Shown here: piece after piece, positions 1,603-44,022 of the stretch
How the letters are laid out: every line of letters starts with the position of its first letter
Numbering within the stretch: the first letter of the stretch is position 1
DNA from: a virus
DNA length: 50,295 nt
IMG/VR virus record: IMGVR_UViG_3300045988_134262
Reading direction: 5' to 3' (one strand)
The notes under the pieces: generated by a model
The model's input: the letters and a program-made list of their open reading frames with translations, nothing else
What the model was told of the DNA's origin: nothing
Database searches by the model: none
Translations under genes and position numbers: made by a program

Positions 1603-1746
1603 ATGATTGATTATATTTTGATTGCATTATTAATATTTATTGGCATTGCATCTCTTGTTAACTCATACCTATATCAAAAGATAAGAAAAGAATATCATGA
1701 AATGCTGATGAAGGAATATTTAAAGCAGAATGAAAAAAAGATATAG
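1603..1746 (+). CDS. Small membrane protein (47 codons)
   Basis: GGAGG lies 7 nt upstream of the ATG. The N-terminus MIDYILIALLIFIGIASLV is a TM helix. Too short for the supplied ORF track. Confidence 0.4.
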   Translation: MIDYILIALLIFIGIASLVNSYLYQKIRKEYHEMLMKEYLKQNEKKI

Positions 1747-1776
1747 TTTTTAAATAAAATAGAAGGTGTATTTAAT

Positions 1777-2304
1777 ATGCAAGAAATATGGAAAGATATT
1801 GAAGGATATGAGGGATTATACCAAGTTAGTAACTTTGGAAGAATTAAAAGTTTAATACATTATGATGTAGAAAATGGTTATAAAAAGAAAGAACACATTA
1901 TAAATGGATGGATAAATAGAGGATATATGTCAGTAAGTTTATCAAAAAATAAAAAGCACAAGAATTTTTATATTCATAGATTAGTTGCAATAGCATTTGT
2001 TGAAAATAAAAATAATAAGCCTTTTATAAATCATATTGATTATAATCCATTAAATAATCATGTTAATAATTTAGAGTGGTGTACTCAAAAAGAAAATGTT
2101 AATTGGTCAAAAATACATATGAAAAAACCTAGAAAAAAACACAAGAAATCAAATACAGGAGAAAAATATATATATCAAAGAAAAGATAATGGCTTATTTA
2201 GAGTATGTATTCGTGGATATTCAAAAGAATATTGTTTCAAAACATTATCAAGTGCAATAAAAAAGAGAGATGAATTATTAAATGAAATCAATTTTGCAAG
2301 ATGA
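1777..2304 (+). CDS. HNH homing endonuclease (NUMOD4-type N-terminus plus HNH_3)
   Basis: WKDIEGYEGLYQVSNFGRIKS is the NUMOD4 signature. HRLVAIAFVEN...INHIDYNPLNNHVNNLEWCTQKEN is the HNH_3 core. Confidence 0.85.
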   Translation: MQEIWKDIEGYEGLYQVSNFGRIKSLIHYDVENGYKKKEHIINGWINRGYMSVSLSKNKKHKNFYIHRLVAIAFVENKNNKPFINHIDYNPLNNHVNNLEWCTQKENVNWSKIHMKKPRKKHKKSNTGEKYIYQRKDNGLFRVCIRGYSKEYCFKTLSSAIKKRDELLNEINFAR

Positions 2305-2557
2305 AAAGAAATGTTATATAACAGGCTCAACAAATAACTTACATAAGCATCATGTATATATGGGTTCAGATAGAAAAAAAGCAGATAAATGGGGCTGTTG
2401 GGTATGGCTAAGAGCAGATTGGCATAACATGAGTAGTTATGGAGTACATTTTAATAAAGATTTAGATTTAAGGTTAAAAAGAGAGATGCAAGAAGCATTT
2501 GAAAAAAAATTTAGCCATGAAAAATTCATGGAAGTTTTTCACAAGAATTATTTATAA
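2282..2557 (+). CDS. Small HNH-motif-like protein, function unknown
   Basis: The CYITGSTNNLHKHHVY...WLRADWHN...GVH pattern recalls short phage HNH-like proteins. The family was not identified with certainty. Confidence 0.4.
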   Translation: MKSILQDEKKCYITGSTNNLHKHHVYMGSDRKKADKWGCWVWLRADWHNMSSYGVHFNKDLDLRLKREMQEAFEKKFSHEKFMEVFHKNYL

Positions 2558-2666
2558 ATCGCTTATATTTTCGATTCTAAGAGGTTTTTATGTTTACATG
2601 AGTATTTCATCATAAATATAAAAAACTCTTTTTATTTAATAAAAAAACATAGAAAGAAGTGATATT

Positions 2667-3029
2667 ATGCAAAAGTTTATTATAAACGGAAGATTAAATG
2701 GCTTGAATGAGTATACAAACAAGAATAGAAGGAATCCATACGCAGGAGCAAAGATGAAAAAAGACAATGAAACTATTGTTATTTATTATATTAAACGTTT
2801 TAAACTCAAGAAAGTTGATAAATACCCTATCAAAATTAAAATTGATTGGTATGAGAAGAATAGAAAAAGAGATATAGACAATATTACATTTGCAACAAAA
2901 TTTATTTTAGACGGCATTGTTAAAGCAGAAATCATGCAAAATGATAGTCAAAAATACGTTAATGAGATTGAACACCATGTTTATATTGATAAAGACAATC
3001 CAAGAATAGAAGTTTCATTAATTTATTGA
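2667..3029 (+). CDS. rusA: RusA-like Holliday junction resolvase
   Basis: About 120 aa with LNEY...N, then KRDIDNI..ATKFILDGIV.A.IMQNDSQ (RusA D-x-D-N and downstream acidic motif). Confidence 0.65.
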   Translation: MQKFIINGRLNGLNEYTNKNRRNPYAGAKMKKDNETIVIYYIKRFKLKKVDKYPIKIKIDWYEKNRKRDIDNITFATKFILDGIVKAEIMQNDSQKYVNEIEHHVYIDKDNPRIEVSLIY

Positions 3030-3099
3030 TTTTGTCTTGAATAAAATTAAAATATTATTATAATTATATGTAGAAAAATATAGAAAAGGAGTTAGAAGA

Positions 3100-3240
3100 A
3101 TGGAAGAATATTCAGTTATCAGAATTAAAGAAAGCACTAAGAAACTAATTGACAAGGAAAAACAGGAAACAGGTAAATTACTATGGTTTATCGTTGATGA
3201 AGCAATAAAGCAATATGTTTCAAATAATGATAACGAGTAA
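3100..3240 (+). CDS. Small protein, possible ribbon-helix-helix DNA binder
   Basis: 46 aa with an AAGGAG-type RBS. VIRIKESTKKLIDKE...LWFIVDEAIKQYV has a beta-strand then helix-helix pattern. Confidence 0.35.
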   Translation: MEEYSVIRIKESTKKLIDKEKQETGKLLWFIVDEAIKQYVSNNDNE

Positions 3241-3255
3241 AAGGAGCGTAAAAAA

Positions 3256-4248
3256 ATGGCGGTAATTAGAACTATCAAAAATGATAATTATACAACAATG
3301 AGCAATTATCATTTAAAAGATAAGGAATTATCCTTAAAAGCAAAAGGTTTATTGAGCATGATGCTATCATTTCCCGATGAGTGGCATTATTCCGTTAAAG
3401 GATTAAAAGGTATATGCAAAGAAAGTGTCAATACCATAAACGGAATATTAAACGAATTAGAGGAAAAGAACTATTTAGTTAGGAGAAGAAAATATTTAAA
3501 TGGGAAAATTAGTGAATGGGAGTATGTAATATTTGAAACAAATAAAAATCATGATACAGAGTTACTACATCTCAAAAATGAAGATATAGAAAATGAAGAT
3601 ATTGAAAATGTAGATATAGAAAATGTAGATATAGAAAATGAAGACGTATATAAATATACTAAAGGATTAAATACTAAAGTATTAAATACTAATAGATTAA
3701 ATACTAAAGGATATATTGTTCAAAACGATTTAGAAAATCATTTTGAACCATCAGTTATTCAACTAACGCTTAATGATAAAACCTTATATGATGTTAGTGA
3801 AAATGATTTTAAAGAATACGAGGAACTATATCCTAATGTTGATATCATGCAAGAACTAAGAAAGATGAAAGGTTGGCTAAATGCGAATCCTACAAAAAGA
3901 AAAACTAAAAGAGGTATTAAAAGATTTATAAACAGTTGGTTATCAAGGGAACAAGATAAGCCAAAACCTAATAATATTTATAATAATGTTAATATTTCAA
4001 ATAATATCAAAGAAAAACCAACTCCAAAATGGGTTGAGAAACAAAAAGAAAAAGAAAAAAAGCAAAAAGAAATAGGATATACAACAAAAGAATTATTGGA
4101 AATGTATGATAAACAGATTGAAAGTGGCTCAACAGATTTAGCAGAACATACATCTAACTTATTTAAAGAATTAAACGGTTGGAGTATTAAAGAATATAGA
4201 AAAAGTGTTGAAGAACTAAATCAAATTATGGAGCAGAATGGATTTTAA
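3256..4248 (+). CDS. Replication initiator / replisome organizer (N-terminal winged-helix domain, DnaD-like C-terminal region)
   Basis: The N-terminus is YTTMSNYHLKDKELSLKAKGLLSMMLSFPDEWHYSVKGL...LEEKNYLVRRR. The C-terminus MKGWLNANPTKRKTKRGIKRFINSWLSRE is typical of phage DnaD-like initiators. An iteron block sits inside the linker. Confidence 0.7.
   Translation: MAVIRTIKNDNYTTMSNYHLKDKELSLKAKGLLSMMLSFPDEWHYSVKGLKGICKESVNTINGILNELEEKNYLVRRRKYLNGKISEWEYVIFETNKNHDTELLHLKNEDIENEDIENVDIENVDIENEDVYKYTKGLNTKVLNTNRLNTKGYIVQNDLENHFEPSVIQLTLNDKTLYDVSENDFKEYEELYPNVDIMQELRKMKGWLNANPTKRKTKRGIKRFINSWLSREQDKPKPNNIYNNVNISNNIKEKPTPKWVEKQKEKEKKQKEIGYTTKELLEMYDKQIESGSTDLAEHTSNLFKELNGWSIKEYRKSVEELNQIMEQNGF
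3574..3648. repeat. Five tandem 15-bp iterons (GAAAATGWAGATATA) inside the initiator gene; putative origin
   Basis: Read directly. Units start at 3574, 3589, 3604, 3619 and 3634. They translate as NEDIENEDIENVDIENVDIENEDV. Confidence 0.6.
3666..3710. repeat. Three tandem 15-bp repeats (ATTAAATACTAANNN) adjoining the first iteron block
   Basis: Read directly. Units start at 3666, 3681 and 3696. Confidence 0.55.
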
Positions 4249-4264
4249 AAAGGAGAATGGATAT

Positions 4265-4582
4265 ATGAAACTTAAAAATCTAGAAGATATGGTTTTAAAA
4301 ATCATGCAGAGATATGAAGCAACAAGAAGTGATGATTTTGTTTTAATTTATACAGTTTATAGAGAAATGGCAGTAGATGCGGAAATTCTTTTTAATATTC
4401 CGTTAACAGATAGTTTTTCCGACATGATGTTGAATCATAAGAAATATGGATTTCCTTCCTTTGAATCAGTAACGAGAACAAGAAGAAAGATTTTTGAAAC
4501 ACACCCCGAACTAAAACCAAAAAAAATCACTAAAGAAAGAAAAAAAGCAGAAGAAGAATATAAGGAGTATTCTAAATCATGA
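4265..4582 (+). CDS. Hypothetical protein
   Basis: AAGGAG RBS before the ATG at 4265. Its end overlaps the radical SAM gene start (ATGA). Confidence 0.5.
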   Translation: MKLKNLEDMVLKIMQRYEATRSDDFVLIYTVYREMAVDAEILFNIPLTDSFSDMMLNHKKYGFPSFESVTRTRRKIFETHPELKPKKITKERKKAEEEYKEYSKS

Positions 4583-5724
4583 AAAACGATATTAAAAAAT
4601 TCAATCCTTTAAATGTCAGCAGTAAATTCGCTATTTGTGGATTGCCAATAAGAATTGATTCTTATAAAACCTGTTCTTTTGGGTGTAAATACTGCTTTGC
4701 AGAAAATAGAAAAATTATGGAGTATGAGAAGAAAATTCAAGTGGCAAATATTAATCAAGTAAAAAATAAACTAAAAAAAGTATTTGATGATAGAAATGTT
4801 GATAAAACAAATTTCCTAGAAACATTGATTGCTGAAGGTATAACTTGGCATTGTGGAGGAATGAGCGACCCATTCCAACCATGCGAAAAAAGGTTGCAAA
4901 TCACAAAGCAAATATTAGATATTACAAATAAATATGGAATCCATATTTTATTCTCAACGAAAAGCAATACAACGTATAACTGCGACATTAGACCAGATTT
5001 ACATAGTTTTCAATTAAGTGTAACAAATACTGAAAACTTAAAAAATATTGAACCTAATGTTCCGAGCATTGAAAGTAGATATAAATTCTTTATGGAATTA
5101 AAAAATAAAGGGTTTAAAGTTGGCATAAGAATACAGCCGTTTATACCTAATATCTCAACATTGAAAATAGTTGAAATGTTTAAAGATGCAGATAACTTCA
5201 CATTAGAAGGAATTAAAATAGTTCCTCAAAACAAAGAATGCAAAGAATTTATTTTAAAAGAAATGAATTTAAAAAAAGAAGATTTTACGCAGATGGGATT
5301 ATTGAATTTAAAACCAACAATCAGATTAGAATTATATAAAACATTTATTGAATATTTTAAAAAAAATAATATCCCATTCTCAATAGCAGATAATGATTTA
5401 CATTTTATAGGAACTAACAAGTGCTGTTGTGGTGATAGATTGGTGCATAAAAGCACATCATTCAACAATACGGCAATGATTAAGAAATATGGAGAAGATT
5501 ATGCAAAAGAACAGTTAGATGAAGAATTATTTGATTGTGGTGTTCGTGATTGTAAATGTAATCAACTATTTACCTCAAACAGGCAAGAAGGCTGTACAAG
5601 CGTTCAAGATTTCTATGATAAAAGATTTTACAGAAAAACAAGCCCATTTTCTCCAAAATTTCAATATAAGGAAGATGATGAAGAAAAAGAGCAAATAGAA
5701 CAGATAAGTATGTTTGATATTTAG
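4579..5724 (+). CDS. Radical SAM enzyme, spore-photoproduct-lyase/COG1533-like ('DNA repair photolyase' family)
   Basis: Canonical CxxxCxxC (CSFGCKYC) near residue 32. Downstream, GGMSDPFQPCE...ITKQILD...HILFSTKS resembles the SplB-like core (tDPYqp.E ... TKs). Confidence 0.7.
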   Translation: MKNDIKKFNPLNVSSKFAICGLPIRIDSYKTCSFGCKYCFAENRKIMEYEKKIQVANINQVKNKLKKVFDDRNVDKTNFLETLIAEGITWHCGGMSDPFQPCEKRLQITKQILDITNKYGIHILFSTKSNTTYNCDIRPDLHSFQLSVTNTENLKNIEPNVPSIESRYKFFMELKNKGFKVGIRIQPFIPNISTLKIVEMFKDADNFTLEGIKIVPQNKECKEFILKEMNLKKEDFTQMGLLNLKPTIRLELYKTFIEYFKKNNIPFSIADNDLHFIGTNKCCCGDRLVHKSTSFNNTAMIKKYGEDYAKEQLDEELFDCGVRDCKCNQLFTSNRQEGCTSVQDFYDKRFYRKTSPFSPKFQYKEDDEEKEQIEQISMFDI

Positions 5725-5825
5725 TGTTCTAAAACAGAACGGAAAAATGAAGCCTTTTAAGACTTCTTTTTCGTCCTCATATGGTATATAATCAAAATGA
5801 AATATAACTGAAAGGAGATTTAAAA

Positions 5826-6299
5826 ATGGAAATTATTGAATTAAATATTGATGATTTAAAAGCATATGAAAACAATCCAAGAAATAATGATGAAGCCGTT
5901 GAATACGTTAAAAAAAGCATCAAAGAATTTGGAATGAAAGTTCCTTTAGTTATTGATAAGAATAACGTTATTGTAACAGGTCATACGAGATTAAAAGCAT
6001 GTAAGGAATTAGGTTATAAAAAGATTCCTTGCATTGTTGCTGATGATTTAAATGAGGAGCAAATAAACGCTTTTAGATTGGTGGATAATAAAACAAATGA
6101 ATTTGCATCATGGGATTTTGATAAATTAGAAGAAGAATTAAGTTTAATATCTGATATTGATATGAATGACTTTGGTTTTGAAAGCGCAGAAGATATTGAT
6201 ATTGATGCATTTTTTAGTGATGCAGAACCTACAGAAAGCAAGGAAGAAAAGAAGAAAACTATTAAATGTCCTCATTGTGGAGAAGAGATAGAAATATGA
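5826..6299 (+). CDS. ParB N-terminal (ParB/Srx nuclease-like) domain protein with C-terminal zinc ribbon
   Basis: The core is LKAYENNPRNNDEAVEYVKKSIKEFGMKVPLVIDKNNVIVTGHTRLKACKELGYKKIPCIV. The C-terminus carries CPHCGEEI. Its stop overlaps the next start (ATGA). Confidence 0.75.
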   Translation: MEIIELNIDDLKAYENNPRNNDEAVEYVKKSIKEFGMKVPLVIDKNNVIVTGHTRLKACKELGYKKIPCIVADDLNEEQINAFRLVDNKTNEFASWDFDKLEEELSLISDIDMNDFGFESAEDIDIDAFFSDAEPTESKEEKKKTIKCPHCGEEIEI

Positions 6300-7186
6300 T
6301 TATCTATCTAAGTGGACAAGGTGGGATATTTAATCAATCTTACGAAAAGTGGAAAAGGACTAAAAAAAATATGGATATGTACTTAGTGATAAGTGGAGAG
6401 ACAGGAAACCCTCAAATATGTAAGGAAAAATTAGATATGGAAATATATTTAGCAGGTTCAGAAGCACAAGCAAAACAAATGAATGAGGATAATAAAGATA
6501 ATTTATTTAAAGGAACAAATGTATTGCAATCATATTATTATTGTAACGAATTTACTGAAAAAGTAGTTATACCATCATGTGATAGTTTTATGTTGGATAG
6601 TGGCGCTTTTACATTTTTCTCAAGTGGGAAAAATGTAGATTGGAATGATTATATAGAAAAGTATGCTGACTTTATAGTAAGAAATGATGTTAAACTATTT
6701 TTTGAATTAGATATTGATGTTTTAATTGGATATGAAAATGTATTGCGTTTAAGAAAAAAATTAGAATCATTAACGCATAGAAAATGCATACCTGTTTGGC
6801 ATAGGTCAAGAGGATTAGACGAGTTCATCAAAATGTGCAAAGAATATGATTATGTTGCATTAGGTGGAATAGCAATAAAAGAGATAAGCAGAAAAGAATA
6901 TAAATATTTCCCAAAATTAATTAAAATAGCACATGATAACGGAGCAAAAATTCATGGACTAGGGTTTACTAGTTTAAACGGAATAACTAAATATCATTTT
7001 GATAGCGTTGATAGCACATCATGGGTTAGTGGAAACAGATTTGGAAAAGTTTATAAATTTAACGGAAAAACAATGGTATGGTATGACAAAAAAGAAGGTC
7101 AGCGTTTAGCAGATAGCAGAAAAGTAGCAGTTCATAATTTTAAGGAGTGGGCTAAATTTGCTGAATATGCTAAAAATAATTTATAA
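6296..7186 (+). CDS. dpdA: DpdA-like DNA (7-deaza)guanine transglycosylase (TGT superfamily)
   Basis: TGT-like motifs FMLDSGAFTFF (cf. DSGGFQ), ALGGIA, HGLGFT and HFDSVDSTSW (cf. archaeal-type FDSA). It sits directly upstream of queD-queE-folE. Start taken at the ATG at 6296 (GGAG RBS, ATGA overlap). Confidence 0.65.
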   Translation: MIIYLSGQGGIFNQSYEKWKRTKKNMDMYLVISGETGNPQICKEKLDMEIYLAGSEAQAKQMNEDNKDNLFKGTNVLQSYYYCNEFTEKVVIPSCDSFMLDSGAFTFFSSGKNVDWNDYIEKYADFIVRNDVKLFFELDIDVLIGYENVLRLRKKLESLTHRKCIPVWHRSRGLDEFIKMCKEYDYVALGGIAIKEISRKEYKYFPKLIKIAHDNGAKIHGLGFTSLNGITKYHFDSVDSTSWVSGNRFGKVYKFNGKTMVWYDKKEGQRLADSRKVAVHNFKEWAKFAEYAKNNL

Positions 7187-7214
7187 AAGCATTTAGATGA
7201 AAAAGGAGAAAAAT

Positions 7215-7550
7215 ATGTATTATGTTAAAAAAAGAATTGAAGTAAGTGCTAGTCATAAACTTAACTTAAGTTATGAAAGTAAATGTGAAAATCTACATGG
7301 ACATAATTGGATAATTGATATTTACATGAGAAGCGAAGAATTAAATAAAGATGGAATGGTAATGGACTTTACTCATATTCAAAAAGAAATCAAAGATAAA
7401 TTAGACCATAAGAATTTAAATGATGTTCTTTCATTCAACACAACAGCAGAAAATATTGCAAAGTGGATTGCGGATACATTAGGAGAAAAATGCTATAAAG
7501 TTGATGTGCAAGAAAGCGAAAATAATATTGCAACTTATGAGGTAGAATAA
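7215..7550 (+). CDS. queD: 6-carboxy-5,6,7,8-tetrahydropterin synthase
   Basis: C-x3-HGH motif (CENLHGHNW), MVMDF and LDHKNLND. Size is about 110 aa. Confidence 0.85.
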   Translation: MYYVKKRIEVSASHKLNLSYESKCENLHGHNWIIDIYMRSEELNKDGMVMDFTHIQKEIKDKLDHKNLNDVLSFNTTAENIAKWIADTLGEKCYKVDVQESENNIATYEVE

Positions 7551-7551
7551 A

Positions 7552-8208
7552 ATGAAAGTTAATGAAATTTTTAAAAGCATTGACGGAGAAGGATTAAGAA
7601 CAGGAGAATTAACAACTTTTATCAGATTAGCAGGTTGTAATTTAAGATGCTCATACTGCGATACATGTTATGCATTAAAAAATTCTAATGGAACAGAAAT
7701 GTCTGTTGATGAAATTGTTAAAAGGGCAAAAAAATATGATTATAGAAACATCACATTGACAGGAGGAGAACCACTTATTAATAAAGATGTTGATGATTTA
7801 ATTTCTAAATTATGTGAAAATGGGTTTTATGTAAATATTGAAACAAATGGAAGTGTACCTATTGATAAGTACATTTTAAATAAAAACATTCTTATTACAA
7901 TGGATTACAAACTTCCTTCTAGTGGTGTTGAAAAAAATATGAATTTAAACAACTTAGAAAAATTAAGAGCAAATGATGTATTGAAATTTGTTATTGGAAA
8001 AGATGATTTTGATAAAGTTAAGCAGATAATTGAAAAATATAGAATCAAATCATATATTTATTTAAGCCCTGTCTTTGGTGAAATAGAACCTTTTGAAATA
8101 GTTGATTTTATGAAAATAATGCATACACAAGGAATTGATACGTCAAAAATGAGGGTGCAAGTTCAGTTGCATAAAATCATATGGAATCCAAACGAAAGAG
8201 GTGTTTAA
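7552..8208 (+). CDS. queE: 7-carboxy-7-deazaguanine synthase (radical SAM)
   Basis: N-terminus [14 protein letters not shown], cluster motif [10 protein letters not shown], and LTGGEPL. Confidence 0.85.
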
Positions 8209-8209
8209 T

Positions 8210-8776
8210 ATGGATAAGAAAAAAATTGAAAATGCAGTTAGAGAAATTCTTATTGCAATTGGAGAAAATCCCGATCGTGAAGGATTAATTGAGACACCAA
8301 AAAGAGTTGCCAAAATGTATGAGGAAGTGTTTGAAGGCATTCAATATTCAAATGAAGAAATTGCTAAAATGTTTGATAAAAAATTCAAGCAAGAAGGAAA
8401 TGATTTAGTTTTAGTAAAAGATATCCCATGCTTTAGTTACTGCGAGCATCATATCGCATTAATGTATAACATGAGTATTAATATTGCATATATTCCAAAT
8501 GGTTATGTATTAGGTCTTTCAAAATTTGCAAGAATTTCCGACATGGTCTGCAAAAGATTACAGTTACAAGAAAGAATTGGAACAGACATTGCAGATATTT
8601 TAGAAATGATATTAGGAACTGATGATATTGCAGTTGTAATAAATGGAGAGCATTCTTGCATGACTGCAAGAGGTATTAAAAAACCTAATACGAAAACAAG
8701 AACAGCAACATTGCGTGGAAGATTCAAAGAAAACGCTGAATTAAGAAATGAACTATATAATTTACTTTCTAAATAA
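8210..8776 (+). CDS. folE: GTP cyclohydrolase I
   Basis: [33 protein letters not shown] and HSCMTARG are classic FolE blocks. Confidence 0.9.
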
Positions 8777-8805
8777 AAAGATACTCAAAAGAGTATCTTT
8801 TTTTA
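8777..8805 (+). terminator. Rho-independent terminator after folE
   Basis: AAAGATACTC-aaaa-GAGTATCTTT followed by a T-run. Confidence 0.8.
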
Positions 8806-8827
8806 TAGAAAAAAGTTGAAATAATTG

Positions 8828-8856
8828 TTGACTATATATGTAATACATAGTATAAT
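8828..8856 (+). promoter_or_regulatory. Conserved early promoter copy 1 (TTGACT-17-TATAAT) with dyad ATGTAATACAT in the spacer
   Basis: Read directly. Bases 8843-8894 are identical over 52 nt to 44766-44817. Confidence 0.7.
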
Positions 8857-8885
8857 AAATATGTAAAGAAGAGAGGTAAACGAAT

Positions 8886-9254
8886 ATGAAAACAAACTTA
8901 GAAGAAATTATGAACGTAAGAAAAGGACTTGAAGGATATGTTGGTGAAGAATATGATTACAAACTATTCAAAAATTGTGAATGTATGCTTCACAACTTAA
9001 GAGAAAGAATGAGCCACGTTCTAGATGTTGCAATGCATACAGAAGAAAAAGAAGAACTAGAAAATGAATATTTGGAACTAGAAAAAGAATACAATGAACT
9101 GTATGAAGAATTAAAACCTTATATGTTAGCAGTATATGATGGATATAAAGAATACTCAGAACGTTGCTATTATAGATATAACAACGTAATTGATTATAGA
9201 CATTGCGATGATTATTTTATGAATGAAATGGCAATAGAAATATTTAAGAACTAA
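8886..9254 (+). CDS. Hypothetical protein, family B paralog (with 43496..43813 and 45438..45950)
   Basis: Shared blocks K(L/M)F.NC...L.NL and KEYNEL...L.P(Y/I)M...Y.GYK.Y...C. Confidence 0.6.
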   Translation: MKTNLEEIMNVRKGLEGYVGEEYDYKLFKNCECMLHNLRERMSHVLDVAMHTEEKEELENEYLELEKEYNELYEELKPYMLAVYDGYKEYSERCYYRYNNVIDYRHCDDYFMNEMAIEIFKN

Positions 9255-9258
9255 AAAT

Positions 9259-9286
9259 AAGTGAAGCGATAACACTTAAAACACTA
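9259..9286 (+). repeat. 28-bp conserved element copy 1 (AAGTGAAGCGATAACACTTAAAACACTA)
   Basis: One of four near-identical copies, each just downstream of a stop codon. Confidence 0.7.
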
Positions 9287-9310
9287 ATTTAAAGAAAGAA
9301 GGAAAGAAAT

Positions 9311-9520
9311 ATGGAATATAACAAAGAAAATTATATAGGAAGAAAAATCTTGCTTTTTCCAAATGATACATACAGTAAAAAGGTAGTTATCAAGAATGTA
9401 GATGATTTAGGATTTACTATATTGATAACAGAGGCAGAAAAAGAGTCTGGTTACGCAGTAGGAAGAACATATTTTATCAATCATGCTTCACATATTAAAT
9501 TTTTATTTTTGGATTCATGA
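9311..9520 (+). CDS. Hypothetical protein
   Basis: ORF with a purine-rich RBS. No recognisable motif. Confidence 0.5.
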   Translation: MEYNKENYIGRKILLFPNDTYSKKVVIKNVDDLGFTILITEAEKESGYAVGRTYFINHASHIKFLFLDS

Positions 9521-9547
9521 TTTTAAAAGAATTGAGGTAAAAGAAAA

Positions 9548-9802
9548 ATGGAAAAGACAATTAATTTTGAAGGCGATGTTTTAACACTTGTAATAGTAGA
9601 AGAGCCAAACAGTAATTGGGATATATACTATTGCGACAGAAACAAACAACTTTACTATATTGCAAAAAAGAAAGGTTGTGGAAGTGGTTGGTTCGGTGAT
9701 CTATACCATTTAAAAAGACTTAAAATAAGATTTGGTTTCAGTTATGAAAGCATTACTGAAAAGGGTGTTGAATTGGGTATTGATAAAATTTTAGGAGAAT
9801 AA
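9548..9802 (+). CDS. Hypothetical protein
   Basis: ORF with a GAGGT RBS. Confidence 0.5.
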   Translation: MEKTINFEGDVLTLVIVEEPNSNWDIYYCDRNKQLYYIAKKKGCGSGWFGDLYHLKRLKIRFGFSYESITEKGVELGIDKILGE

Positions 9803-11440: not shown

Positions 11441-12316
11441 TTGGACAATGAATTTATTTTGATTGATAGGGTTGATTCTATCAAGAAAGTTATAAACAAA
11501 TATGGAATTGAAAATTTTGTTATTTCATTTAGTGGAGGAAAAGATTCCACTGTATTATCAAAGTTAATTGATATTGCAATACCTAATAATGATATTCCAA
11601 GGGTATTCATAAATACAGGTATTGAATATAAAGCAATTGTTGATTTTGTGCATGAGAATATGAAAAAGGATAAACGATTTATTGAGATTAAACCATCAAT
11701 ACCTTTAAGCATGATATTTAGAAAATATGGTTATCCTTTTAAATCTAAGGAACATAGTCAATTAGTTCATTTATTTCAGCAAAACGGACATAGCAAAACA
11801 ACTCTTAGATATTATAACCCTCCAGAAAATCGCAAGCGTTTTGGTTGCCCTAAAGTATTAAAATATCAATTTGAAGAAGGAACACAACTTAAAATAAGTG
11901 ATAAGTGTTGCACTAAATTAAAAAAAGAACCATTTACAAAATGGCAAGAAGAAAATAGAAAACCTTATAAAATGACAGGAGAAAGACTTTCGGAGGGTGG
12001 TTTAAGAGCATCTCATAAAGGTTGCTTAGTTATTGATAAGAATAGCAAACTAAAGAAATTTAAACCATTGAATCCTGTCACTAGTGAATGGCTTGAATGG
12101 TTTATAAATGAGTATAAAGTTCAATTATGCAAATTATATGATGAACCTTATAACTTTAAAAGAACAGGTTGTTTAGGGTATCCATTTAATATTAATTTGC
12201 AAGATACATTAGATACTTTAGAAAAGACTTTGCCACTTGAGAAAAAGAAAGCAGAAGCAATTTGGAAAGAAGTATATCAAGAGTATAGGAAATTAAATTA
12301 CAGATTAAAAAGGTAA
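11441..12316 (+). CDS. PP-loop ATP pyrophosphatase, PAPS-reductase-like family
   Basis: SFSGGKDST PP-loop, INTGIEY, CCTKLKKEP, TGERLSEGGLRA and KRTGCLGYP follow the PAPS_reduct block order. The only possible start before the PP-loop is TTG at 11441, and it has no clear SD. Confidence 0.7.
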   Translation: MDNEFILIDRVDSIKKVINKYGIENFVISFSGGKDSTVLSKLIDIAIPNNDIPRVFINTGIEYKAIVDFVHENMKKDKRFIEIKPSIPLSMIFRKYGYPFKSKEHSQLVHLFQQNGHSKTTLRYYNPPENRKRFGCPKVLKYQFEEGTQLKISDKCCTKLKKEPFTKWQEENRKPYKMTGERLSEGGLRASHKGCLVIDKNSKLKKFKPLNPVTSEWLEWFINEYKVQLCKLYDEPYNFKRTGCLGYPFNINLQDTLDTLEKTLPLEKKKAEAIWKEVYQEYRKLNYRLKR

Positions 12317-12799: not shown

Positions 12800-13276
12800 A
12801 TGATTAATTGCGAAAGATACATAGATGATATTTTAAAAACTAATAATTGTGATTTTGGATTTAATAAACGTGATAGAAAAATTATAAAATGTGATGCAAA
12901 ATATTGTGATGAATGTTTATTCAATCCGAAAAATTGTGCATATAAATCAACATGTAATGTTTTAAGATTAAAATGGTTGGCTTCTGAAAATAAAGAACCT
13001 ATTAGGTTGAATAGACTTGAATATGAGGTTTTAAAATTCATAGAATTTGGATATATTGCTAGGGATAAAGAAGGAAATTTATTTTCATTTTGGTATAAAC
13101 CAAGAAAATGTAATGATATTTGGGATTGTGATGTTCCTAAGAATCAAAATTATTCACATGATTTAACTTTATTCAATGAATTATTTAAATTTATTAGATG
13201 GGAAGATGCAGAACCAACTTCAATAGAAGAATTATTAAAAAATTGCGAGGTAACTGAAAATGCTGAAAACAGATGA
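12800..13276 (+). CDS. Family A paralog 1 (Cys-rich N-terminus plus conserved W-E/K-D...EP(T/K)SI C-terminal domain)
   Basis: LNRLEYEVLKFI...YIARDKEGNL...LFNELFKFIRWEDAEPTSIEELLKNCEV aligns with four other ORFs. Confidence 0.65.
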   Translation: MINCERYIDDILKTNNCDFGFNKRDRKIIKCDAKYCDECLFNPKNCAYKSTCNVLRLKWLASENKEPIRLNRLEYEVLKFIEFGYIARDKEGNLFSFWYKPRKCNDIWDCDVPKNQNYSHDLTLFNELFKFIRWEDAEPTSIEELLKNCEVTENAENR

Positions 13277-13457
13277 TATTGCTCAATTTGTCGCAATTAG
13301 TGGACTAATGAATTATTGTAAATCTCATGATGATTGCAAAAATTGCAATATGTATAATCTTTGCAATGTACTGACAGGAGAAAAGAAATTAACGTGGGTT
13401 ATTGATAAAATTATATTTGAACATTCAGATAATGAGGAGGAAAAAGAATATGAATAA
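13260..13457 (+). CDS. Small Cys-rich protein
   Basis: YCKSHDDCKNCNMYNLC. The start lies in a conserved junction TTGCGAGGTAACTGAAAATG. Confidence 0.5.
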   Translation: MLKTDDIAQFVAISGLMNYCKSHDDCKNCNMYNLCNVLTGEKKLTWVIDKIIFEHSDNEEEKEYE

Positions 13458-13917
13458 TGGAGAAAAATACAAAGATAAAATTATTGAAGAATATCAAAAT
13501 TTACTAAAAGAAAAAGTTATTGATGGTGATGGCAATAGAATGAATAGAGCAATTAAGGAAATTGCATATAAATATTGTGGAATGAGATTACTTGGCGCAT
13601 CTAGTACATTTGAATGGTTATTTGATGATTATAAAGAACAACCTATCAAATTAACTAGATTAGAATATTTATTATTAAAGTTATTTTATGAAAAAGATTT
13701 TAGGTATTTAACAAGAAGTGCTGGAGGGTTTTTGTATATGAATAAAGGAAATAATCCTCCTCAAAAAAAAGATGGAATGTGGTTTAATTGCGAATCTTAT
13801 ATAACTTATGATGTAATTAATGATTTATTTCAATTTGTGCAGTGGAAAGATGAACAACCTAAATCAATCAAAAAAATACTAAATAACTGCGAAGTATTTG
13901 ATAATGAAGATAACTAA
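13450..13917 (+). CDS. Family A paralog 2 (lacks the Cys-rich N-terminus)
   Basis: LTRLEYLLLKLF...YLTRSAGGFL...INDLFQFVQWKDEQPKSIKKILNNCEV. GGAGG RBS. Confidence 0.65.
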   Translation: MNNGEKYKDKIIEEYQNLLKEKVIDGDGNRMNRAIKEIAYKYCGMRLLGASSTFEWLFDDYKEQPIKLTRLEYLLLKLFYEKDFRYLTRSAGGFLYMNKGNNPPQKKDGMWFNCESYITYDVINDLFQFVQWKDEQPKSIKKILNNCEVFDNEDN

Positions 13918-13961
13918 ATTAATTATTCTTATGAAAAATGGCGATTATTGGAGGGTTTAAA

Positions 13962-14417
13962 ATGATTAATGCAGAAAAATATAAAAATGAATTAAAATCA
14001 TTAAATGATGCAGATAAATTATGGTGTAGTGCTTTTAATAAATATGATATGACTTTTGACAGTTGTGTAAATGTAAAATGTGAAAATTGTGCATTTAGCG
14101 GTGGCAAAGGTTGCAGGGTAGAACGTTATAATTGGCTATTATCTGAGTATATCGAACATATTGAGGTTAGCGAGTTTGAATATAAGATTCTTAAATATCT
14201 AGCAGATAAAACAAGACATATGTATATCGCAAGAGATAAAAGCGGAAGCCTATATCTCTATGATTCTGAGCCTTGCAAGAGCAACACTAAAAATTTGTGG
14301 ATTGGTAAAGGTACACCACAACTAACACCATTTAATAAACTGTTTAAATTTATCACGTGGGAAGATGATAAACCAACATCAATCAAAGATGTTTTAGATA
14401 ATTGCATTATTAAATGA
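13962..14417 (+). CDS. Family A paralog 3
   Basis: MINAEKYKNEL, a C-x13-C-x4-C-x2-C-x7-C block, YIARDKSGSL and FNKLFKFITWEDDKPTSIKDVLDNC. Confidence 0.65.
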   Translation: MINAEKYKNELKSLNDADKLWCSAFNKYDMTFDSCVNVKCENCAFSGGKGCRVERYNWLLSEYIEHIEVSEFEYKILKYLADKTRHMYIARDKSGSLYLYDSEPCKSNTKNLWIGKGTPQLTPFNKLFKFITWEDDKPTSIKDVLDNCIIK

Positions 14418-14774: not shown

Positions 14775-15248
14775 ATGATTAACGCTGAAAAATTCAAAGA
14801 TGAATTAAGAATAATTATTGATTCAAATAAATTAAATGATTGCGCATTTAGAAAAAATAATAAAACATTTTGTGAGTGTTCTGATACTTTTTGCGAAAAT
14901 TGCATATTTGATAACAGAAAAGGCTGTCAGTACGGACGCATAAAGTGGATGCTTTCAGAGTATAAAGAAGGGATCGTTTTATCAAAACTTGAATATGCAC
15001 TTTTAAAATATATTTTTAACAGAACAAAATATAGATACATTGTTAGAAGTAAACTTGGAGAAGTTTTCGTTTATGAGAACGAACCAATAAAAAACGGTGA
15101 TGATTGGAGCGTTCTTTTAAATGGTGGAGGATTTACAACTATAGTGTTTTTAAGTGAATTATTCAAATTTATAAAATGGTCTGATTTAACAGCAATATCA
15201 ATAAAAGATGTTCTTGCTGATTGTAATGTTATTGATGATAATTATTAA
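14775..15248 (+). CDS. Family A paralog 4
   Basis: MINAEKFKDEL, a Cys block ending CENC, YIVRSKLGEV and LSELFKFIKWSDLTAISIKDVLADC. Confidence 0.65.
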   Translation: MINAEKFKDELRIIIDSNKLNDCAFRKNNKTFCECSDTFCENCIFDNRKGCQYGRIKWMLSEYKEGIVLSKLEYALLKYIFNRTKYRYIVRSKLGEVFVYENEPIKNGDDWSVLLNGGGFTTIVFLSELFKFIKWSDLTAISIKDVLADCNVIDDNY

Positions 15249-40786: not shown

Positions 40787-42397
40787 ATGATTGAATTAAA
40801 AAGTGGATTTTTCAACGCAGTTATGGTGGATAACGAACCAGATAGAATATATACTGCAGAACAGGTTAATGACTATTTTAAAGGCTTGATTTCTGATAAT
40901 GGAATATTCGCAACAGTTTCAAATGCCTGCCAAGTTATCAAAAATACAGGTATGAGGGTTATTATAAAATCGGGCAGGGGGAAAGTAGGAAATAATTGGT
41001 TTGAGATTGATAAGGATTATACTATTGATATTCCTTCAAGTGATGTAATTTTAAACAGAATTGATAGAATCGTTATCTCAAGAGATAATAGCACACGTTC
41101 AACACAATTAAAATTATTGAAAGGTGAATTATCCTCAAGTCCTACACCTCCAACATTAACAAGAGATGAAACAACGTATGAGATATGTCTAGCAAATATC
41201 ATTGTAAATAAGAATACAACTGCAATCACTGATTCTATGATTCAAGATACACGTTCAAATAATTCTGTTTGTGGGTGGATTGTTGGGTTGATTGAACAGT
41301 TTGATACAACAACATTATTTAATCAATATAAAGATGCTCAAGATACATTCATTGATGAAACAAGCAAAAATTTCACAAATTGGGAGATATCACAAAAAAG
41401 CAATTTTGATGCTTGGTTTAACAATATCAAAGAAACTGTTAAAACTGCGAATATCTATAGAGAATATAAAGCATTATATGCAACAACTTATGAAAACGAA
41501 AAAACATTAACTATCCCTAGTACAATAAATTTTGTGAATAATTCGCTTGATATATTGGAAATTCGTATAAATGATTTTGTACTTGCAAAAGATGAATTTA
41601 GCATCAATACTCAAGGAACACAAGTAATACTTACTAATCCAATAGATAAGATAGGCACAAGAATAGAATTTGTAAATAAAAAATGTGTTGAAGGAACAGT
41701 TGCAGAAAGTACTGTAACAAGACTTGATAAATTAGAAAATAAAGTAAATTCTATTGGCGAATATGTATATGAAGCGACAGGAGATAATGATAATAAAGCA
41801 TTATCAACTATAGTGAAAAATTTCTTGAATGGTGTTGGCAATTATGCAAGTGTTCAAGATAATTCACAACTATATATATTAGTAAGTGGAACATTAGGAA
41901 TTGCTTCATCTATTGATAATAATGTATTTGATTTTACAAGTGACACAACTTCAAAAAGAAAAGCAATCATTGACTTTTCAAGAGCAACTATACCTAATAT
42001 AACATTGACTGATACAACATTAACAGTAATGAGATGTGGTGATAATATCACTATCAAAAATGCTAATATAAAGATTGAGCAAAACAATTCACAAACTATA
42101 TATAGTTTGTATGGAGGAGATCACGAAAATATAAGCGTATATATCAATGGTACTTATGGAACATTATATGGTGCTTATGATTGTCATAGCATTTTGAATA
42201 GCAATATTAATATTGAGAATGCGACAGGAACATGCTATGGTTGCTACTTATGTAAAAAGGTGTTATATAATGAAATCAATATAAATAGTGGAACAAGTAT
42301 AGAAGCAAGTGGAAAGCAGTTACTCATGGGCAACTTCGTAAATCAACCTATAAACGCAGATGATGCGGTTACAAATATAGGAACTATCACATTATAA
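40787..42397 (+). CDS. Putative receptor-binding tail protein
   Basis: This is the last structural gene. The C-terminal half is N/T/S-rich. Confidence 0.5.
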   Translation: MIELKSGFFNAVMVDNEPDRIYTAEQVNDYFKGLISDNGIFATVSNACQVIKNTGMRVIIKSGRGKVGNNWFEIDKDYTIDIPSSDVILNRIDRIVISRDNSTRSTQLKLLKGELSSSPTPPTLTRDETTYEICLANIIVNKNTTAITDSMIQDTRSNNSVCGWIVGLIEQFDTTTLFNQYKDAQDTFIDETSKNFTNWEISQKSNFDAWFNNIKETVKTANIYREYKALYATTYENEKTLTIPSTINFVNNSLDILEIRINDFVLAKDEFSINTQGTQVILTNPIDKIGTRIEFVNKKCVEGTVAESTVTRLDKLENKVNSIGEYVYEATGDNDNKALSTIVKNFLNGVGNYASVQDNSQLYILVSGTLGIASSIDNNVFDFTSDTTSKRKAIIDFSRATIPNITLTDTTLTVMRCGDNITIKNANIKIEQNNSQTIYSLYGGDHENISVYINGTYGTLYGAYDCHSILNSNINIENATGTCYGCYLCKKVLYNEININSGTSIEASGKQLLMGNFVNQPINADDAVTNIGTITL

Positions 42398-42413
42398 AAA
42401 GGAGGTATTAATC

Positions 42414-42674
42414 ATGAATTTAGATTTTTTAACTAATTATTTAGTTTGTGTGATTGTTGGTATTTGCTTATGTGTTGGGTTTGTCATTAAAACAAGCATT
42501 CCAAAGATTGATAACAAATATATTCCATTGATTATGGCAATTTTAGGAATTATATTAAATGTATGGATAAATATGAGTTTCACACCCGATATTATATTAG
42601 GTGGCTTATTCAGTGGTTTAGCATCAACAGGATTACATCAAGCATTTACGCAAATAATCAATAAAGAAGAATAG
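42414..42674 (+). CDS. Holin, copy B
   Basis: Two TM helices. GLASTGLHQAFT is shared with 24374..24640. Confidence 0.7.
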   Translation: MNLDFLTNYLVCVIVGICLCVGFVIKTSIPKIDNKYIPLIMAILGIILNVWINMSFTPDIILGGLFSGLASTGLHQAFTQIINKEE

Positions 42675-42684
42675 AGGTATTCTT

Positions 42685-42945
42685 ATGAATGAAGCACAGT
42701 TTGTTGGAAATGTTATTCTAGCATTGATTACATTAGGATCTTTTGTTGCAATTATCAATAAATTTACGCAACCTATTAATGAATTAAAAATAGTAATTGA
42801 AAAATTGAATAGTTGTATTGAACACATTAAAGAAGATGAAGCAGTACAGAATAAAAGATTAGAAAAGCATGGAATGGAAATTGATGATTTAAAAACACGT
42901 ATTGGAAAAGTTGAAACAAAATTAGAAGTTACTAGCGAGGAGTAG
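42685..42945 (+). CDS. XhlA-like lysis protein, copy B
   Basis: A TM helix is followed by the coiled coil RLEKHGMEIDDLKTRIGKVE. Paralog of 24641..24856. Confidence 0.6.
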   Translation: MNEAQFVGNVILALITLGSFVAIINKFTQPINELKIVIEKLNSCIEHIKEDEAVQNKRLEKHGMEIDDLKTRIGKVETKLEVTSEE

Positions 42946-42967
42946 TTATATAACTGCTCCTTTTTTT
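42939..42967 (+). terminator. Rho-independent terminator ending the rightward late operon
   Basis: GGAGTAGT-tatata-ACTGCTCC followed by T7. Confidence 0.7.
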
Positions 42968-43030
42968 ACGATTGAAAAAAACGTGGACGAAAACATTTAC
43001 GATTGAATTTATACTCATTTTTAATCACAT

Positions 43031-43061
43031 TTAAAAAAATAAGGTGATTCCTCACCTTATT
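43031..43061 (-). terminator. Terminator of the leftward early unit
   Basis: AATAAGGTGA-ttcc-TCACCTTATT is a perfect 10-bp stem. The A-run on the + strand gives a T-run on the - strand. Confidence 0.7.
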
Positions 43062-43368
43062 CAAAATATCCTTCTTCTTTTAATTGCTTTCTTACTGCAT
43101 TCATAAGTTTTCTATAAGTAAGGATTGAACCATCTTCAAGTTCTAGTTCATCACAATCATTAAGATATAAATTAGCATTAATATGAAAGTCGGAGTAATC
43201 TGCTAAAATATAGCGGACGTCTCCTTTCATTGACTTGCTATCTCTTCCTGTTTCTTCAAGATATTCAGACCAGGTTTTAATTCCCAAATCTTTATAATAT
43301 CCATCTAAATCACTTTTTACATCTTCCACTACTAATTTAGTTGCTAATTCAAATTTATTCATATTCAT
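43057..43368 (-). CDS. Hypothetical acidic protein
   Basis: Minus-strand ORF with the conserved leader and promoter copy 6. Confidence 0.6.
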   Translation of the reverse strand: MNMNKFELATKLVVEDVKSDLDGYYKDLGIKTWSEYLEETGRDSKSMKGDVRYILADYSDFHINANLYLNDCDELELEDGSILTYRKLMNAVRKQLKEEGYFE

Positions 43369-43391
43369 TTACCTCTTTTCTTTACAAGTAT

Positions 43392-43420
43392 ATTATATAT
43401 GTAATACATATAAAAGTCAA
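43392..43420 (-). promoter_or_regulatory. Conserved early promoter copy 6 (minus strand, TTGACT-17-TATAAT) with ATGTATTACAT in the spacer
   Basis: The reverse complement was read directly. Its spacer is identical to that of copy 8. Confidence 0.65.
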
Positions 43421-43464
43421 CAACATTTTGAATATTTCTTAGAATTTTCATTATATGAAAAAAT

Positions 43465-43490
43465 GGTGTTTATAGTGTTATCGCTTCACT
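43465..43490 (-). repeat. 28-bp conserved element copy 2 (minus strand: AGTGAAGCGATAACACTATAAACACC)
   Basis: Begins 5 nt after the stop of the minus-strand gene 43496..43813. Confidence 0.7.
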
Positions 43491-43495
43491 TTTTA

Positions 43496-43813
43496 CTAGT
43501 CCTTATAATCAAGTAATACTGGAGAAATTCCACAATGCTTACAATATGCTTTATATCCTTTATAACAGACTTTCATAATAGGTGCTACTATTTCATCTAA
43601 TTCGTTGTATTCCTTCTTTAGCGTTCTATATTCGTAGTTTTTTACGCATTCACAAATACTTGTATCACGCACTAAGTCTTTTATCTCATTGTTTAGATTC
43701 TCAAGTAATGCTAGACAATTACTGAACATTTTAAAGTCATATACTTGTAATTTATAATGATCATTAATGCTTGCCCTTGATTTTTTCACCATTGTTAAAT
43801 TTACATTATTCAT
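43496..43813 (-). CDS. Hypothetical protein, family B paralog
   Basis: See 8886..9254. Contains KEYNELDEIVAPIMKVCYKGYKAYCKHC. Confidence 0.6.
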   Translation of the reverse strand: MNNVNLTMVKKSRASINDHYKLQVYDFKMFSNCLALLENLNNEIKDLVRDTSICECVKNYEYRTLKKEYNELDEIVAPIMKVCYKGYKAYCKHCGISPVLLDYKD

Positions 43814-44022
43814 TATTCAATCACCTCATATTTATTTTTCTTAACGTATGTTTTTGATGTTAAACTTCTAACTCTAAAGTCTGCTTCTTCTGTATTCAAC
43901 CACTTATAAGCATCTTCTAAATTATCAAACTTTTTAGCGTATCCATGCCATTTTCCAAATTCAAACTTTTCAGATACTCCATACACAAATCCATTCTTTT
44001 TGAAATAAGTTTCTACTTTCAT
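43813..44022 (-). CDS. Hypothetical protein
   Basis: Minus-strand ORF behind promoter copy 7. Confidence 0.55.
   Translation of the reverse strand: MKVETYFKKNGFVYGVSEKFEFGKWHGYAKKFDNLEDAYKWLNTEEADFRVRSLTSKTYVKKNKYEVIE

Follow-up and report, generated by a model that had tools for sequence, protein, structure and literature searches.

Does a radical S-adenosylmethionine (SAM) enzyme encoded immediately upstream of a 7-deazaguanine cassette belong to that pathway, or does it only stand beside it? The question is raised by the viral genome record IMGVR_UViG_3300045988_134262 (IMG/VR), a stretch of 50,295 nucleotides that was analyzed as a whole and is hereafter called the window. In it, a plus-strand gene at 4579..5724 encodes a radical-SAM protein and precedes genes for a ParB-like protein, a DpdA-like transglycosylase, QueD, QueE and FolE. 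The initial annotation, made from the sequence alone, took this gene to be the first of a deazaguanine operon and proposed that its product tailors the inserted deazapurine. Our comparative analysis shows instead that the cassette is a separately acquired module, swapped in behind a radical-SAM gene that closes the preceding replication block; homology and genomic context point to a DNA-directed modifying or processing enzyme that acts independently of deazaguanine, a reading to which we give an even chance.

The deazaguanine cassette is a separately acquired module

The radical-SAM open reading frame (ORF) is a genuine, strongly constrained phage gene. As the initial annotation had noted, its start overlaps the upstream gene: the ATG at 4579 shares the four nucleotides ATGA with the TGA of the ORF at 4238..4582, and about 11 nt 5' of it there is a ribosome-binding site, AAGGAG. 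The protein has 1297 homologues at E≤1e-3, the top 120 of which are 68-96% identical, and the ratio of non-synonymous to synonymous substitution rates (dN/dS) is 0.05 against orthologues with 92% protein identity. An AlphaFold2 model computed from a 46-sequence alignment reached a predicted local distance difference test score (pLDDT) of 92 and a predicted template modeling score (pTM) of 0.91. A near-identity DNA search of GenBank phages with window positions 3000-9000 returned no match and tblastn of the protein found only two weak matches, both in unannotated gut phages; there is therefore no cultured reference phage. The gene and its surroundings are laid out as follows.

3256..4248, plus strand: DnaD/HTH_36-type replication initiator, which starts the overlapping block DnaD-like / ORF114 / radical SAM
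4238..4582, plus strand: ORF114, 114 aa, no family match, kept upstream of the radical-SAM gene in the related loci L001-L003 and L009
4579..5724, plus strand: radical-SAM gene, 381 aa, ATG start, family phrog_13321
5725..5825: intergenic gap of 101 nt, with the mosaic breakpoint 5732/5733 inside it
5826-6299, plus strand: ParB_N, cassette gene
6266-7186, plus strand: DpdA-like transglycosylase (phrog_887, 2e-56; NCBIfam DpdA model only E 0.009)
7197-7550, plus strand: QueD, cassette gene
7552-8208, plus strand: QueE (TIGR03963, 270 bits, above cutoff)
8201-8776, plus strand: FolE, cassette gene

The radical-SAM gene does precede the ParB-like/DpdA pair, as the initial annotation had stated, and the spacing of the genes divides the region in two. 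DnaD-like and ORF114 overlap (-11 nt), as do ORF114 and the radical-SAM gene (-4 nt); then follows the interval of +101 nt to ParB, after which ParB to DpdA (-34 nt), DpdA to QueD (+10 nt), QueD to QueE (+1 nt) and QueE to FolE (-8 nt) are again tightly packed. This spacing ties the radical-SAM gene to the upstream replication genes, to which it is translationally coupled, and sets ParB-FolE apart as a packed block. Two further features occur in the gap: a weak hairpin followed by a T-run (5749-5775), and a TATAAT box.

Comparison with the closest relatives places the boundary of the cassette to the nucleotide. The radical-SAM proteins of L001, L002, L003 and L009 are 89-92% identical to that of the window (92% for L001-L003), and L001-L003 are syntenic with the window through SSB, DnaD-like, ORF114 and radical SAM and then again further downstream; window positions 6266-9802 are absent from these three loci. 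DNA homology stops at window position 5732 in all four relatives, 8 nt past the radical-SAM stop codon. It picks up again at 8778 in L009, 2 nt behind the FolE stop (8776); the other three regain it further on, L001 and L002 at 9793, L003 at 10703. The slot so delimited holds a fusion of ParB_N to a DNA methyltransferase (phrog_498, 1e-132) in L001, L002 and L009, the ParB part of which is 47-48% identical to the window ParB, and other, unrelated genes in L003. Because homology breaks at 5732 and resumes at 8778 in L009, the ParB-DpdA-QueD-QueE-FolE segment (5733-8777) is a separately acquired, swapped-in module that replaces the ParB-methyltransferase of L001, L002 and L009. The radical-SAM gene is then the last gene of the preceding replication block; given the breakpoint, the 101-nt gap and the coupling to replication genes, its placement as the first gene of a deazaguanine operon is not supported.

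In one of these relatives, L001, the radical-SAM copy carries an in-frame stop at 8034-8036 in place of the Leu231 of the window and of L002; the copy, 91-92% identical apart from this, represents either a pseudogene or a sequencing error.

The wider family gave the same separation. We assembled 106 homologue loci (25 IMG/VR contigs, 2 contigs obtained via the protein P0006 and 79 contigs from GTDB genomes) with flanks of up to 10 kb, and tblastn at E≤1e-4 found DpdA, QueD, QueE and FolE in none of them. Conversely, in seven viral loci with DpdA relatives (36-53% identity) ParB lies directly upstream of DpdA in six, and QueE and FolE are present in four, while a hidden Markov model (HMM) of the radical-SAM family matched in 0/7 at E≤0.01. 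Co-occurrence with dpdA and queE, the absence of which the initial annotation had named beforehand as one half of what would refute its proposal, was thus found in no relative, and on the comparative side the proposal falls.

The cassette itself resembles the published Dpd 7-deazaguanine system (DpdA/DpdB with genes for 7-cyano-7-deazaguanine (preQ0) synthesis) in the adjacency of its genes, and the ParB-like gene 5' of DpdA mirrors the DpdB/DpdA pairing (PMC10516641). It differs at the point in question: the other DpdA loci examined have no radical SAM, the other radical-SAM loci have no DpdA, and no such radical SAM is named among the deazaguanine pathway genes (PMC10516641). The argument of the initial annotation that the standard preQ0 pathway does not need this enzyme stands. 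Family-model searches of the window proteins found no QueC, so the encoded pathway ends at 7-carboxy-7-deazaguanine (CDG) unless preQ0 is finished by a host QueC; nor did the window show a separate second T-fold gene of the DpdL-like kind.

Further downstream, a plus-strand gene at 11441-12316 encodes a PP-loop protein resembling 3'-phosphoadenosine-5'-phosphosulfate (PAPS) reductases, with an SGGKDS motif (phrog_424) and weak PADLOC matches to BrxP (5e-12), SspD and DndC. We considered it as a substitute for QueC and rejected it, both on these matches and on its homologues in L008 and L024, loci that lack que genes. These homologues lie directly downstream of the radical-SAM gene in L008 and two genes downstream in L024. 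The protein may be another DNA-modification gene product.

Fold and family assignment

AlphaFold2 modeling followed by Foldseek comparison gave the window protein the partial TIM-barrel fold of radical-SAM enzymes. Spore photoproduct lyase (SPL) ranked first in the PDB (E 4e-8, template modeling score 0.5-0.58), other radical-SAM enzymes came next at about 1e-5, and all 35 top matches were radical-SAM enzymes. A sequence profile searched against PDB chains reached SPL at E 0.012 only, and membership of the SPL family is therefore not given by sequence alone.

Family models describe a more distant relationship. The window protein has no match to Pfam PF04055 (Radical_SAM), the cutoff of which (29.5 bits) is exceeded by its relatives L049 (35.7 bits) and P0238 (32.5 bits). 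Its best NCBIfam matches are PA0069 (63.1 bits, cutoff 360), mobile pair B and Rv2578c (30.2 bits, cutoff 430); the PA0069 match is restricted to residues 26-206, and this model is matched by 46/46 aligned family members, with a best E of 2.7e-32. All three models describe COG1533 'DNA repair photolyase' proteins of unknown function. The likeness consists in their being the best NCBIfam matches; the three are cellular families, whereas the window family occurs in phages and prophages and scores far under the cutoffs. The SPL equivalog models (photo_TT_lyase, TIGR04070, and lyase_spl_fam) gave no match for the window protein at E≤0.01 and only weak matches in 3/46 and 2/46 of the aligned relatives. 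PHROGs assigns the protein to phrog_13321, 'unknown function', and some homologues bear the JGI label 'DNA repair photolyase'. PADLOC returned no match, so an origin in a defence system finds no support there.

The classification by HMM and structure prediction that the initial annotation had called for accordingly gives a radical-SAM fold, phrog_13321 and a sub-cutoff PA0069 match. We conclude that phrog_13321 is a phage-restricted, uncharacterised radical-SAM family, and that the protein is SPL/COG1533-like at the superfamily level only: the likeness first noted is borne out at that level, where SPL is the top Foldseek match, and membership of the SPL family itself is not.

Conserved motifs and cysteine sites

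The cluster motif CSFGCKYC (residues 32-39) and the cysteine-rich C-terminal region with CCCGD (residues 282-286, nt 5422-5436) and CGVRDCKC (residues 320-327, nt 5536-5559) are present as first described. Cysteine conservation was scored over 120 close and 68 distant homologues, and the sites on the plus strand are as follows.

4636..4638, plus strand: C20, upstream of the cluster motif, conserved family-wide; candidate ligand of an auxiliary site with C283 and C284
4672..4695, plus strand: CX3CX2C motif CSFGCKYC (C32, C36, C39), radical-SAM [4Fe-4S] cluster site
4855..4875, plus strand: GGMSDPF block (G93, G94, D97, F99), family-wide; counterpart TDPF in Pseudomonas phage M6 gp53
5422..5433, plus strand: CCCG motif within CCCGD; C283 and C284 family-wide, C282 clade-specific
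5551..5595, plus strand: C325, C327 and C339, conserved in 120, 114 and 120 of the 120 close homologues and absent in distant ones

All 120 close homologues, and at least 66/68 of the distant ones, have the C32/C36/C39 motif, with Y38 as the conserved aromatic residue that precedes its third cysteine, and the GGMSDPF block is probably the SAM-binding strand. Residues conserved across the whole family are C20, R25, D27, Y29, C32/C36/C39, Y38, H91, G93-G94, D97, T127-K128, R184, Q186, E210, D271, C283-C284 and G285; C282, C325, C327 and C339 are conserved in the window clade only, and the last three of these may form a second auxiliary metal site. Conservation does not extend to C320 and C92. 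At the C92 position, just before GGMSDPF, 86 of the 120 close homologues have Cys and 28 have Trp; many homologues have Trp, Phe or Leu there, and the distant ones a hydrophobic residue. Judged by their pattern of conservation, the two extra sets of cysteines, the family-wide and the clade-specific one, are candidates for auxiliary metal or Fe-S sites.

Near the GGMSDPF block, the radical-SAM gene of subclade relatives has a tract of eight G residues (TGG GGG GGA, encoding W-G-G), where the window (4852-4864) reads TGTGGAGGA and has no homopolymer. In L009, L010, L011, L012, L015 and L018 the tract has seven G residues, near locus position 10268, and the ORF is split; as an eight-G run in a genome of ~27-30% GC, it suggests slipped-strand phase variation or a homopolymer sequencing error. 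L011 and L012, which come from different metagenomes, are 99.99% identical over 10.4 kb, and their sole difference, at L011:11331, is ten versus nine G residues in the phrog_757 DNA methyltransferase-like gene that directly follows the radical-SAM gene. Variable poly-G tracts in a pair of adjacent genes are reminiscent of phase-variable DNA-modification loci.

Comparison with M6 gp53 and spore photoproduct lyase

To our knowledge, only two radical-SAM enzymes act on DNA, SPL and gp53 of Pseudomonas phage M6, so that the expectation of a DNA-acting nearest characterised relative holds for both. We took gp53 from DQ163916 by means of its published CTVGCAFC motif. Alignment of the family profile to gp53 with hhalign gave a probability of 98.3% (E 1.4e-14, 236 columns), and pairwise BLASTP gave E 1e-8. 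The corresponding figures for B. subtilis SplB, which are indicative only, were 76%, E 2e-5 and 81 columns; the gp53 profile match is much the stronger of the two.

The window family and gp53 are both phage-encoded and have in common the blocks CX3CX[FY]C, [ST]DPF..E and QxxP as well as a C-terminal SP motif; distant family members, moreover, lie beside the gp53-like partner classes 5-hydroxymethyldeoxyuridine (5-hmdU) kinase, amino-acid:DNA transferase and acetyltransferase. Such kinase and amino-acid:DNA transferase partners are confined to distant relatives, namely the L059-type cassettes, the L102 fusion and L122. gp53 is a radical-SAM isomerase that converts N-alpha-glycinylthymidine to its C-alpha isomer in DNA, and it contains ~9 Fe in each protein molecule, which agrees with two clusters (PMC8989533). 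The window family also has extra conserved cysteines. It differs from gp53 in several respects. Identity is only ~17-22%; the C-terminal cysteine motifs are not the same, the window family having CC[C]G and CxC...C; and the window gene sits in a replication module. Local HMMs found in the window no 5-hmdU kinase, aGPT-Pplase/ADDT or other hypermodification partner from the relatives' cassettes, with the pyridoxal-phosphate decarboxylase and the dUMP hydroxymethylase not specifically searched.

SplB (PDB 4FHC and related entries) is the best match among solved structures, shares the radical-SAM partial barrel, acts on DNA and aligns with the window family over the central FxTK...EP....R...G block. 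Its distinguishing chemistry is less readily found in the window protein. SPL has a hydrogen-donor cysteine (C141 in Bs, C140 in Gt) and a Tyr relay. The hydrogen-donor region could not be aligned reliably, and the nearest candidate in the window protein is C92; judged from this residue, in a region where the alignment is unreliable, the catalytic cysteine may not be conserved in the family. F40 follows the third cluster cysteine, a position at which SPL has Tyr. The window protein further differs from SplB in matching no SPL model, in its extra cysteine sites, and in a context of phage genes and DNA modification that is unrelated to sporulation.

Gene neighbourhoods across the family

ParB_N is the commonest neighbour of the radical-SAM gene, occurring in 44/98 loci and sharing its strand in every case. 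No more than three genes separate the two in 38 of the 98, against 16.1 expected from random placement within loci, and is directly adjacent in 16 (6.5 expected). At 72 non-redundant loci, the two ORFs on either side of the gene were compared with Pfam in bulk, which found ParB_N at 12, GNAT at 5, N6/N4 methyltransferase and TET-associated glycosyltransferase (TAGT) at 4 each, amino-acid:DNA transferase (ADDT) and SAM synthetase (MetK) at 3 each and P-loop nucleotide kinase 3 at 1; a large terminase was a neighbour at 14 + 6 loci, and a phrog_757 DNA methyltransferase is also among the family neighbours. These genes recur as cassettes, one with MetK, ParB, an ADDT-like protein, a P-loop kinase, GNAT, radical SAM and terminase in Bacteroidales-type prophages, and another with ParB, TAGT, radical SAM and MetK. 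In L102, from a contig binned to Victivallis vadensis, a single 648-aa ORF (1745-3688) fuses an N-terminal radical SAM to a 5-hmdU DNA kinase (PF18748, residues 461-603, E 6e-13).

The converse search started from the glycosyltransferase. Among 80 viral loci retrieved with a TAGT alignment, ParB is present in 72 and radical SAM in 21, mostly directly after the ParB/TAGT genes; L122, for example, has the order ParB / ADDT / kinase / TAGT / radical SAM. The remaining 59 of the 80 run from ParB-TAGT into small and large terminase-like ORFs (by position), with no obvious oxygenase in the radical-SAM slot. Neither TET_JBP nor a thymidylate-synthase-like family was among the 25 Pfam families listed, of 51, for 107 ORFs that flank nine cassette-type loci or lie upstream of them, a weak negative. 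The distant cassette-type members are 20-25% identical to the window protein and keep the motifs over their full length, including the C-terminal SP motif. The family-wide context is DNA hypermodification, as for gp53.

Two further arrangements were seen in such loci. Many of the environmental phage contigs L140-L196 carry a conserved pair of ParB (~207 aa) and TAGT-like glycosyltransferase (~239 aa) genes immediately upstream of ORFs that are terminase-like by position and size, and have neither a radical SAM nor an obvious oxygenase alongside. In L131 and L132, when compared with the syntenic L130, L134 and L135, a 509-aa minus-strand ORF fills the radical-SAM slot of the ParB / TAGT / terminase locus and may be an insertion or a replacement.

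The clade of the window protein (≥50% identity, ~42 loci) comes mostly from Clostridia and Eubacteriales of gut and rumen. It has replication genes upstream and a variable DNA-modification slot downstream, filled by ParB-methyltransferase, a phrog_757 DNA methyltransferase-like gene or a PAPS-reductase-like gene; the ParB and DpdA cassette occurs only in the window. Local HMMs found no ADDT, TAGT, GNAT, MetK or kinase homologue in the window. The distant relatives fall in Bacteroidales, Victivallales and Methanobrevibacter bins, inside hypermodification cassettes.

Proposed function and alternative explanations

Homology and context together argue for a DNA-directed modifying or processing enzyme whose role is independent of deazaguanine. 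In such an enzyme, the [4Fe-4S] cluster at C32/C36/C39 would cleave SAM reductively to give a 5'-deoxyadenosyl radical, and the auxiliary cysteine sites (C20/C283/C284 across the family, C325/C327/C339 in the clade) would probably hold metal or Fe-S centres. The radical would then take a hydrogen atom from a DNA nucleobase or its substituent, most likely from a pyrimidine C5-methyl group because this chemistry is common to SPL and M6 gp53, and phage DNA would in this way be altered after replication, with no need for 7-deazaguanine. We infer substrate and reaction here, as every step of the scheme, from superfamily chemistry and context.

Several observations weigh against this assignment. No Pfam or NCBIfam model reaches its curated cutoff for the window protein, the phrog_13321 family has no characterised member, and a literature search found no publication on the family or on the pairing of radical SAM with ParB. 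The adjacency statistics overstate independence because many loci are related and because phages often carry ParB, methyltransferase and similar genes. Moreover, the kinase, ADDT, TAGT, GNAT and MetK partners of the distant members are missing from the window and its close clade, in which the gene sits in a replication module, not beside terminase; because the close clade lacks those partners, the inference from context has to span 20-25% identity.

Three other explanations were set against it. Tailoring of a 7-deazapurine, as the free base or after insertion by DpdA, by the first gene of a deazaguanine operon would account for a gene that shares the strand of ParB-DpdA-QueD-QueE-FolE and lies directly upstream of it; for want of QueC the encoded pathway stops at CDG, so that one can conceive of an additional step, and relatives of the radical-SAM family do tailor DNA hypermodifications. 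The cassette, however, begins 8 nt past the radical-SAM stop, behind a gap with hairpin, T-run and TATAAT box, ParB-DpdA is a conserved pair in other phages that have no radical SAM, and co-occurrence is nil in either direction (0/106 homologue loci, 0/7 DpdA loci). Because orthologues of up to 92% identity (89-92% among the four relatives) are kept under strong purifying selection in phages without deazaguanine genes, we regard such tailoring as very unlikely. Repair of 5-thyminyl-5,6-dihydrothymine or a related lesion in the phage DNA of spore-forming Clostridia, in the manner of SPL, agrees with SPL as the closest solved structure, with hosts of the close clade that are mostly Clostridia or Eubacteriales, with a place among replication and recombination genes and, on a reading of motifs only, with C92 beside the GGMSD block at roughly the position of the SPL hydrogen-donor cysteine. 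Yet many homologues have Trp, Phe or Leu instead of that residue, no SPL model matches at E≤0.01 and only 3/46 relatives match one, weakly, and the indicative alignment to SplB (76%, E 2e-5, 81 columns) is weaker than that to gp53. Relatives also occur in non-sporulating Bacteroidales, Victivallales and Methanobrevibacter bins within hypermodification cassettes, and one would expect that an early phage gene is not packaged in spores, that a host SPL would serve and that gut and rumen see little ultraviolet light. Lesion repair is in our estimation improbable.

A substrate other than DNA, be it RNA or tRNA, a protein or a metabolite (in counter-defence or host takeover, for example), would make the DNA-modification neighbours coincidental. 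It gains from the lack of direct substrate evidence, from a close clade that has no obligate partner gene, and from cellular PA0069 and Rv2578c relatives of unknown function. Both characterised relatives act on DNA, however, in one member the radical SAM is joined to a 5-hmdU DNA kinase, the ParB, glycosyltransferase, ADDT and methyltransferase neighbours recur across very divergent lineages, and PADLOC gives no match to a defence system. We hold a non-DNA substrate to be unlikely, while regarding it as the strongest of the three.

A speculative extension of the DNA-directed assignment would have the family functionalise thymine or 5-methylcytosine in DNA at the C5-methyl group without oxygen, as the counterpart in phages of anaerobes of the ParB-assisted Fe/2-oxoglutarate (2OG) thymine dioxygenases; the window clade would then be a stand-alone form that installs an undescribed modification. 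Phage Fe/2OG thymine dioxygenases (5mYOX) include a subclass that needs a ParB-like activator (2026 PNAS, PMC13229309), and their neighbourhoods hold glycosyltransferases (31%), ParB (27%) and terminases (19%), along with amino-acid transferases, kinases, GNAT and N6/N4 methyltransferases (PMC13229309). This profile closely matches that of the radical-SAM family, and both are candidates for post-replicative chemistry at pyrimidine C5; the likeness is one of context only, 5mYOX being Fe(II)/2OG- and O2-dependent with an unrelated fold and cofactor. The chemistry could proceed by hydrogen abstraction from the C5-methyl group, oxidation of the allylic radical via an auxiliary Fe-S cluster and capture by water or another nucleophile. 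The neighbourhoods with ParB, TAGT, kinase and ADDT would fit, as would hosts that are anaerobes of gut and rumen, the additional conserved cysteines and the thymine-methyl radical chemistry of SPL and gp53. Against it, no one-for-one swap with a dioxygenase at the same position was found among the 80 TAGT loci, in many of which the slot next to ParB-TAGT contains neither of the two enzymes; we consider it improbable.

Other features of the window

The window resembles a near-complete temperate phage genome of ~27% GC, with SSB at its left end, an exonuclease and Erf at its right, and terminase, endolysin and structural genes between. A 175-aa ORF at 1777-2304 (plus strand), which by eye resembles a NUMOD4/HNH-type homing endonuclease gene, is probably a mobile insertion because it fills a gap in the DNA homology to L001-L003 (1754-2305). 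Four tandem paralogous ORFs of ~160-170 aa (12800-13276, 13402-13917, 13938-14417 and 14775-15248, all plus strand) have Cys-rich N-terminal halves and a C-terminal block LF.F..W.D..P.SI...L.NC.V, with counterparts in L003. The only stretch with slightly negative GC and AT skew is 42001-44000; it holds minus-strand ORFs of at least 100 aa at 43057-43368 and 43496-43813 and probably represents a lysogeny or regulatory module with divergent transcription.

Implications

For deazaguanine biology, the cassette of this phage is ParB-DpdA-QueD-QueE-FolE without QueC, and the radical-SAM gene should not be counted among the pathway genes. Temperate phages that infect anaerobes of gut and rumen commonly carry the family to which that gene belongs, repeatedly beside DNA-modification genes. 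The reaction of phrog_13321 proteins, once worked out, could bring to light a DNA modification that is new, or a known one reached by an anaerobic route, and could also show what role ParB-like proteins play in such modules.

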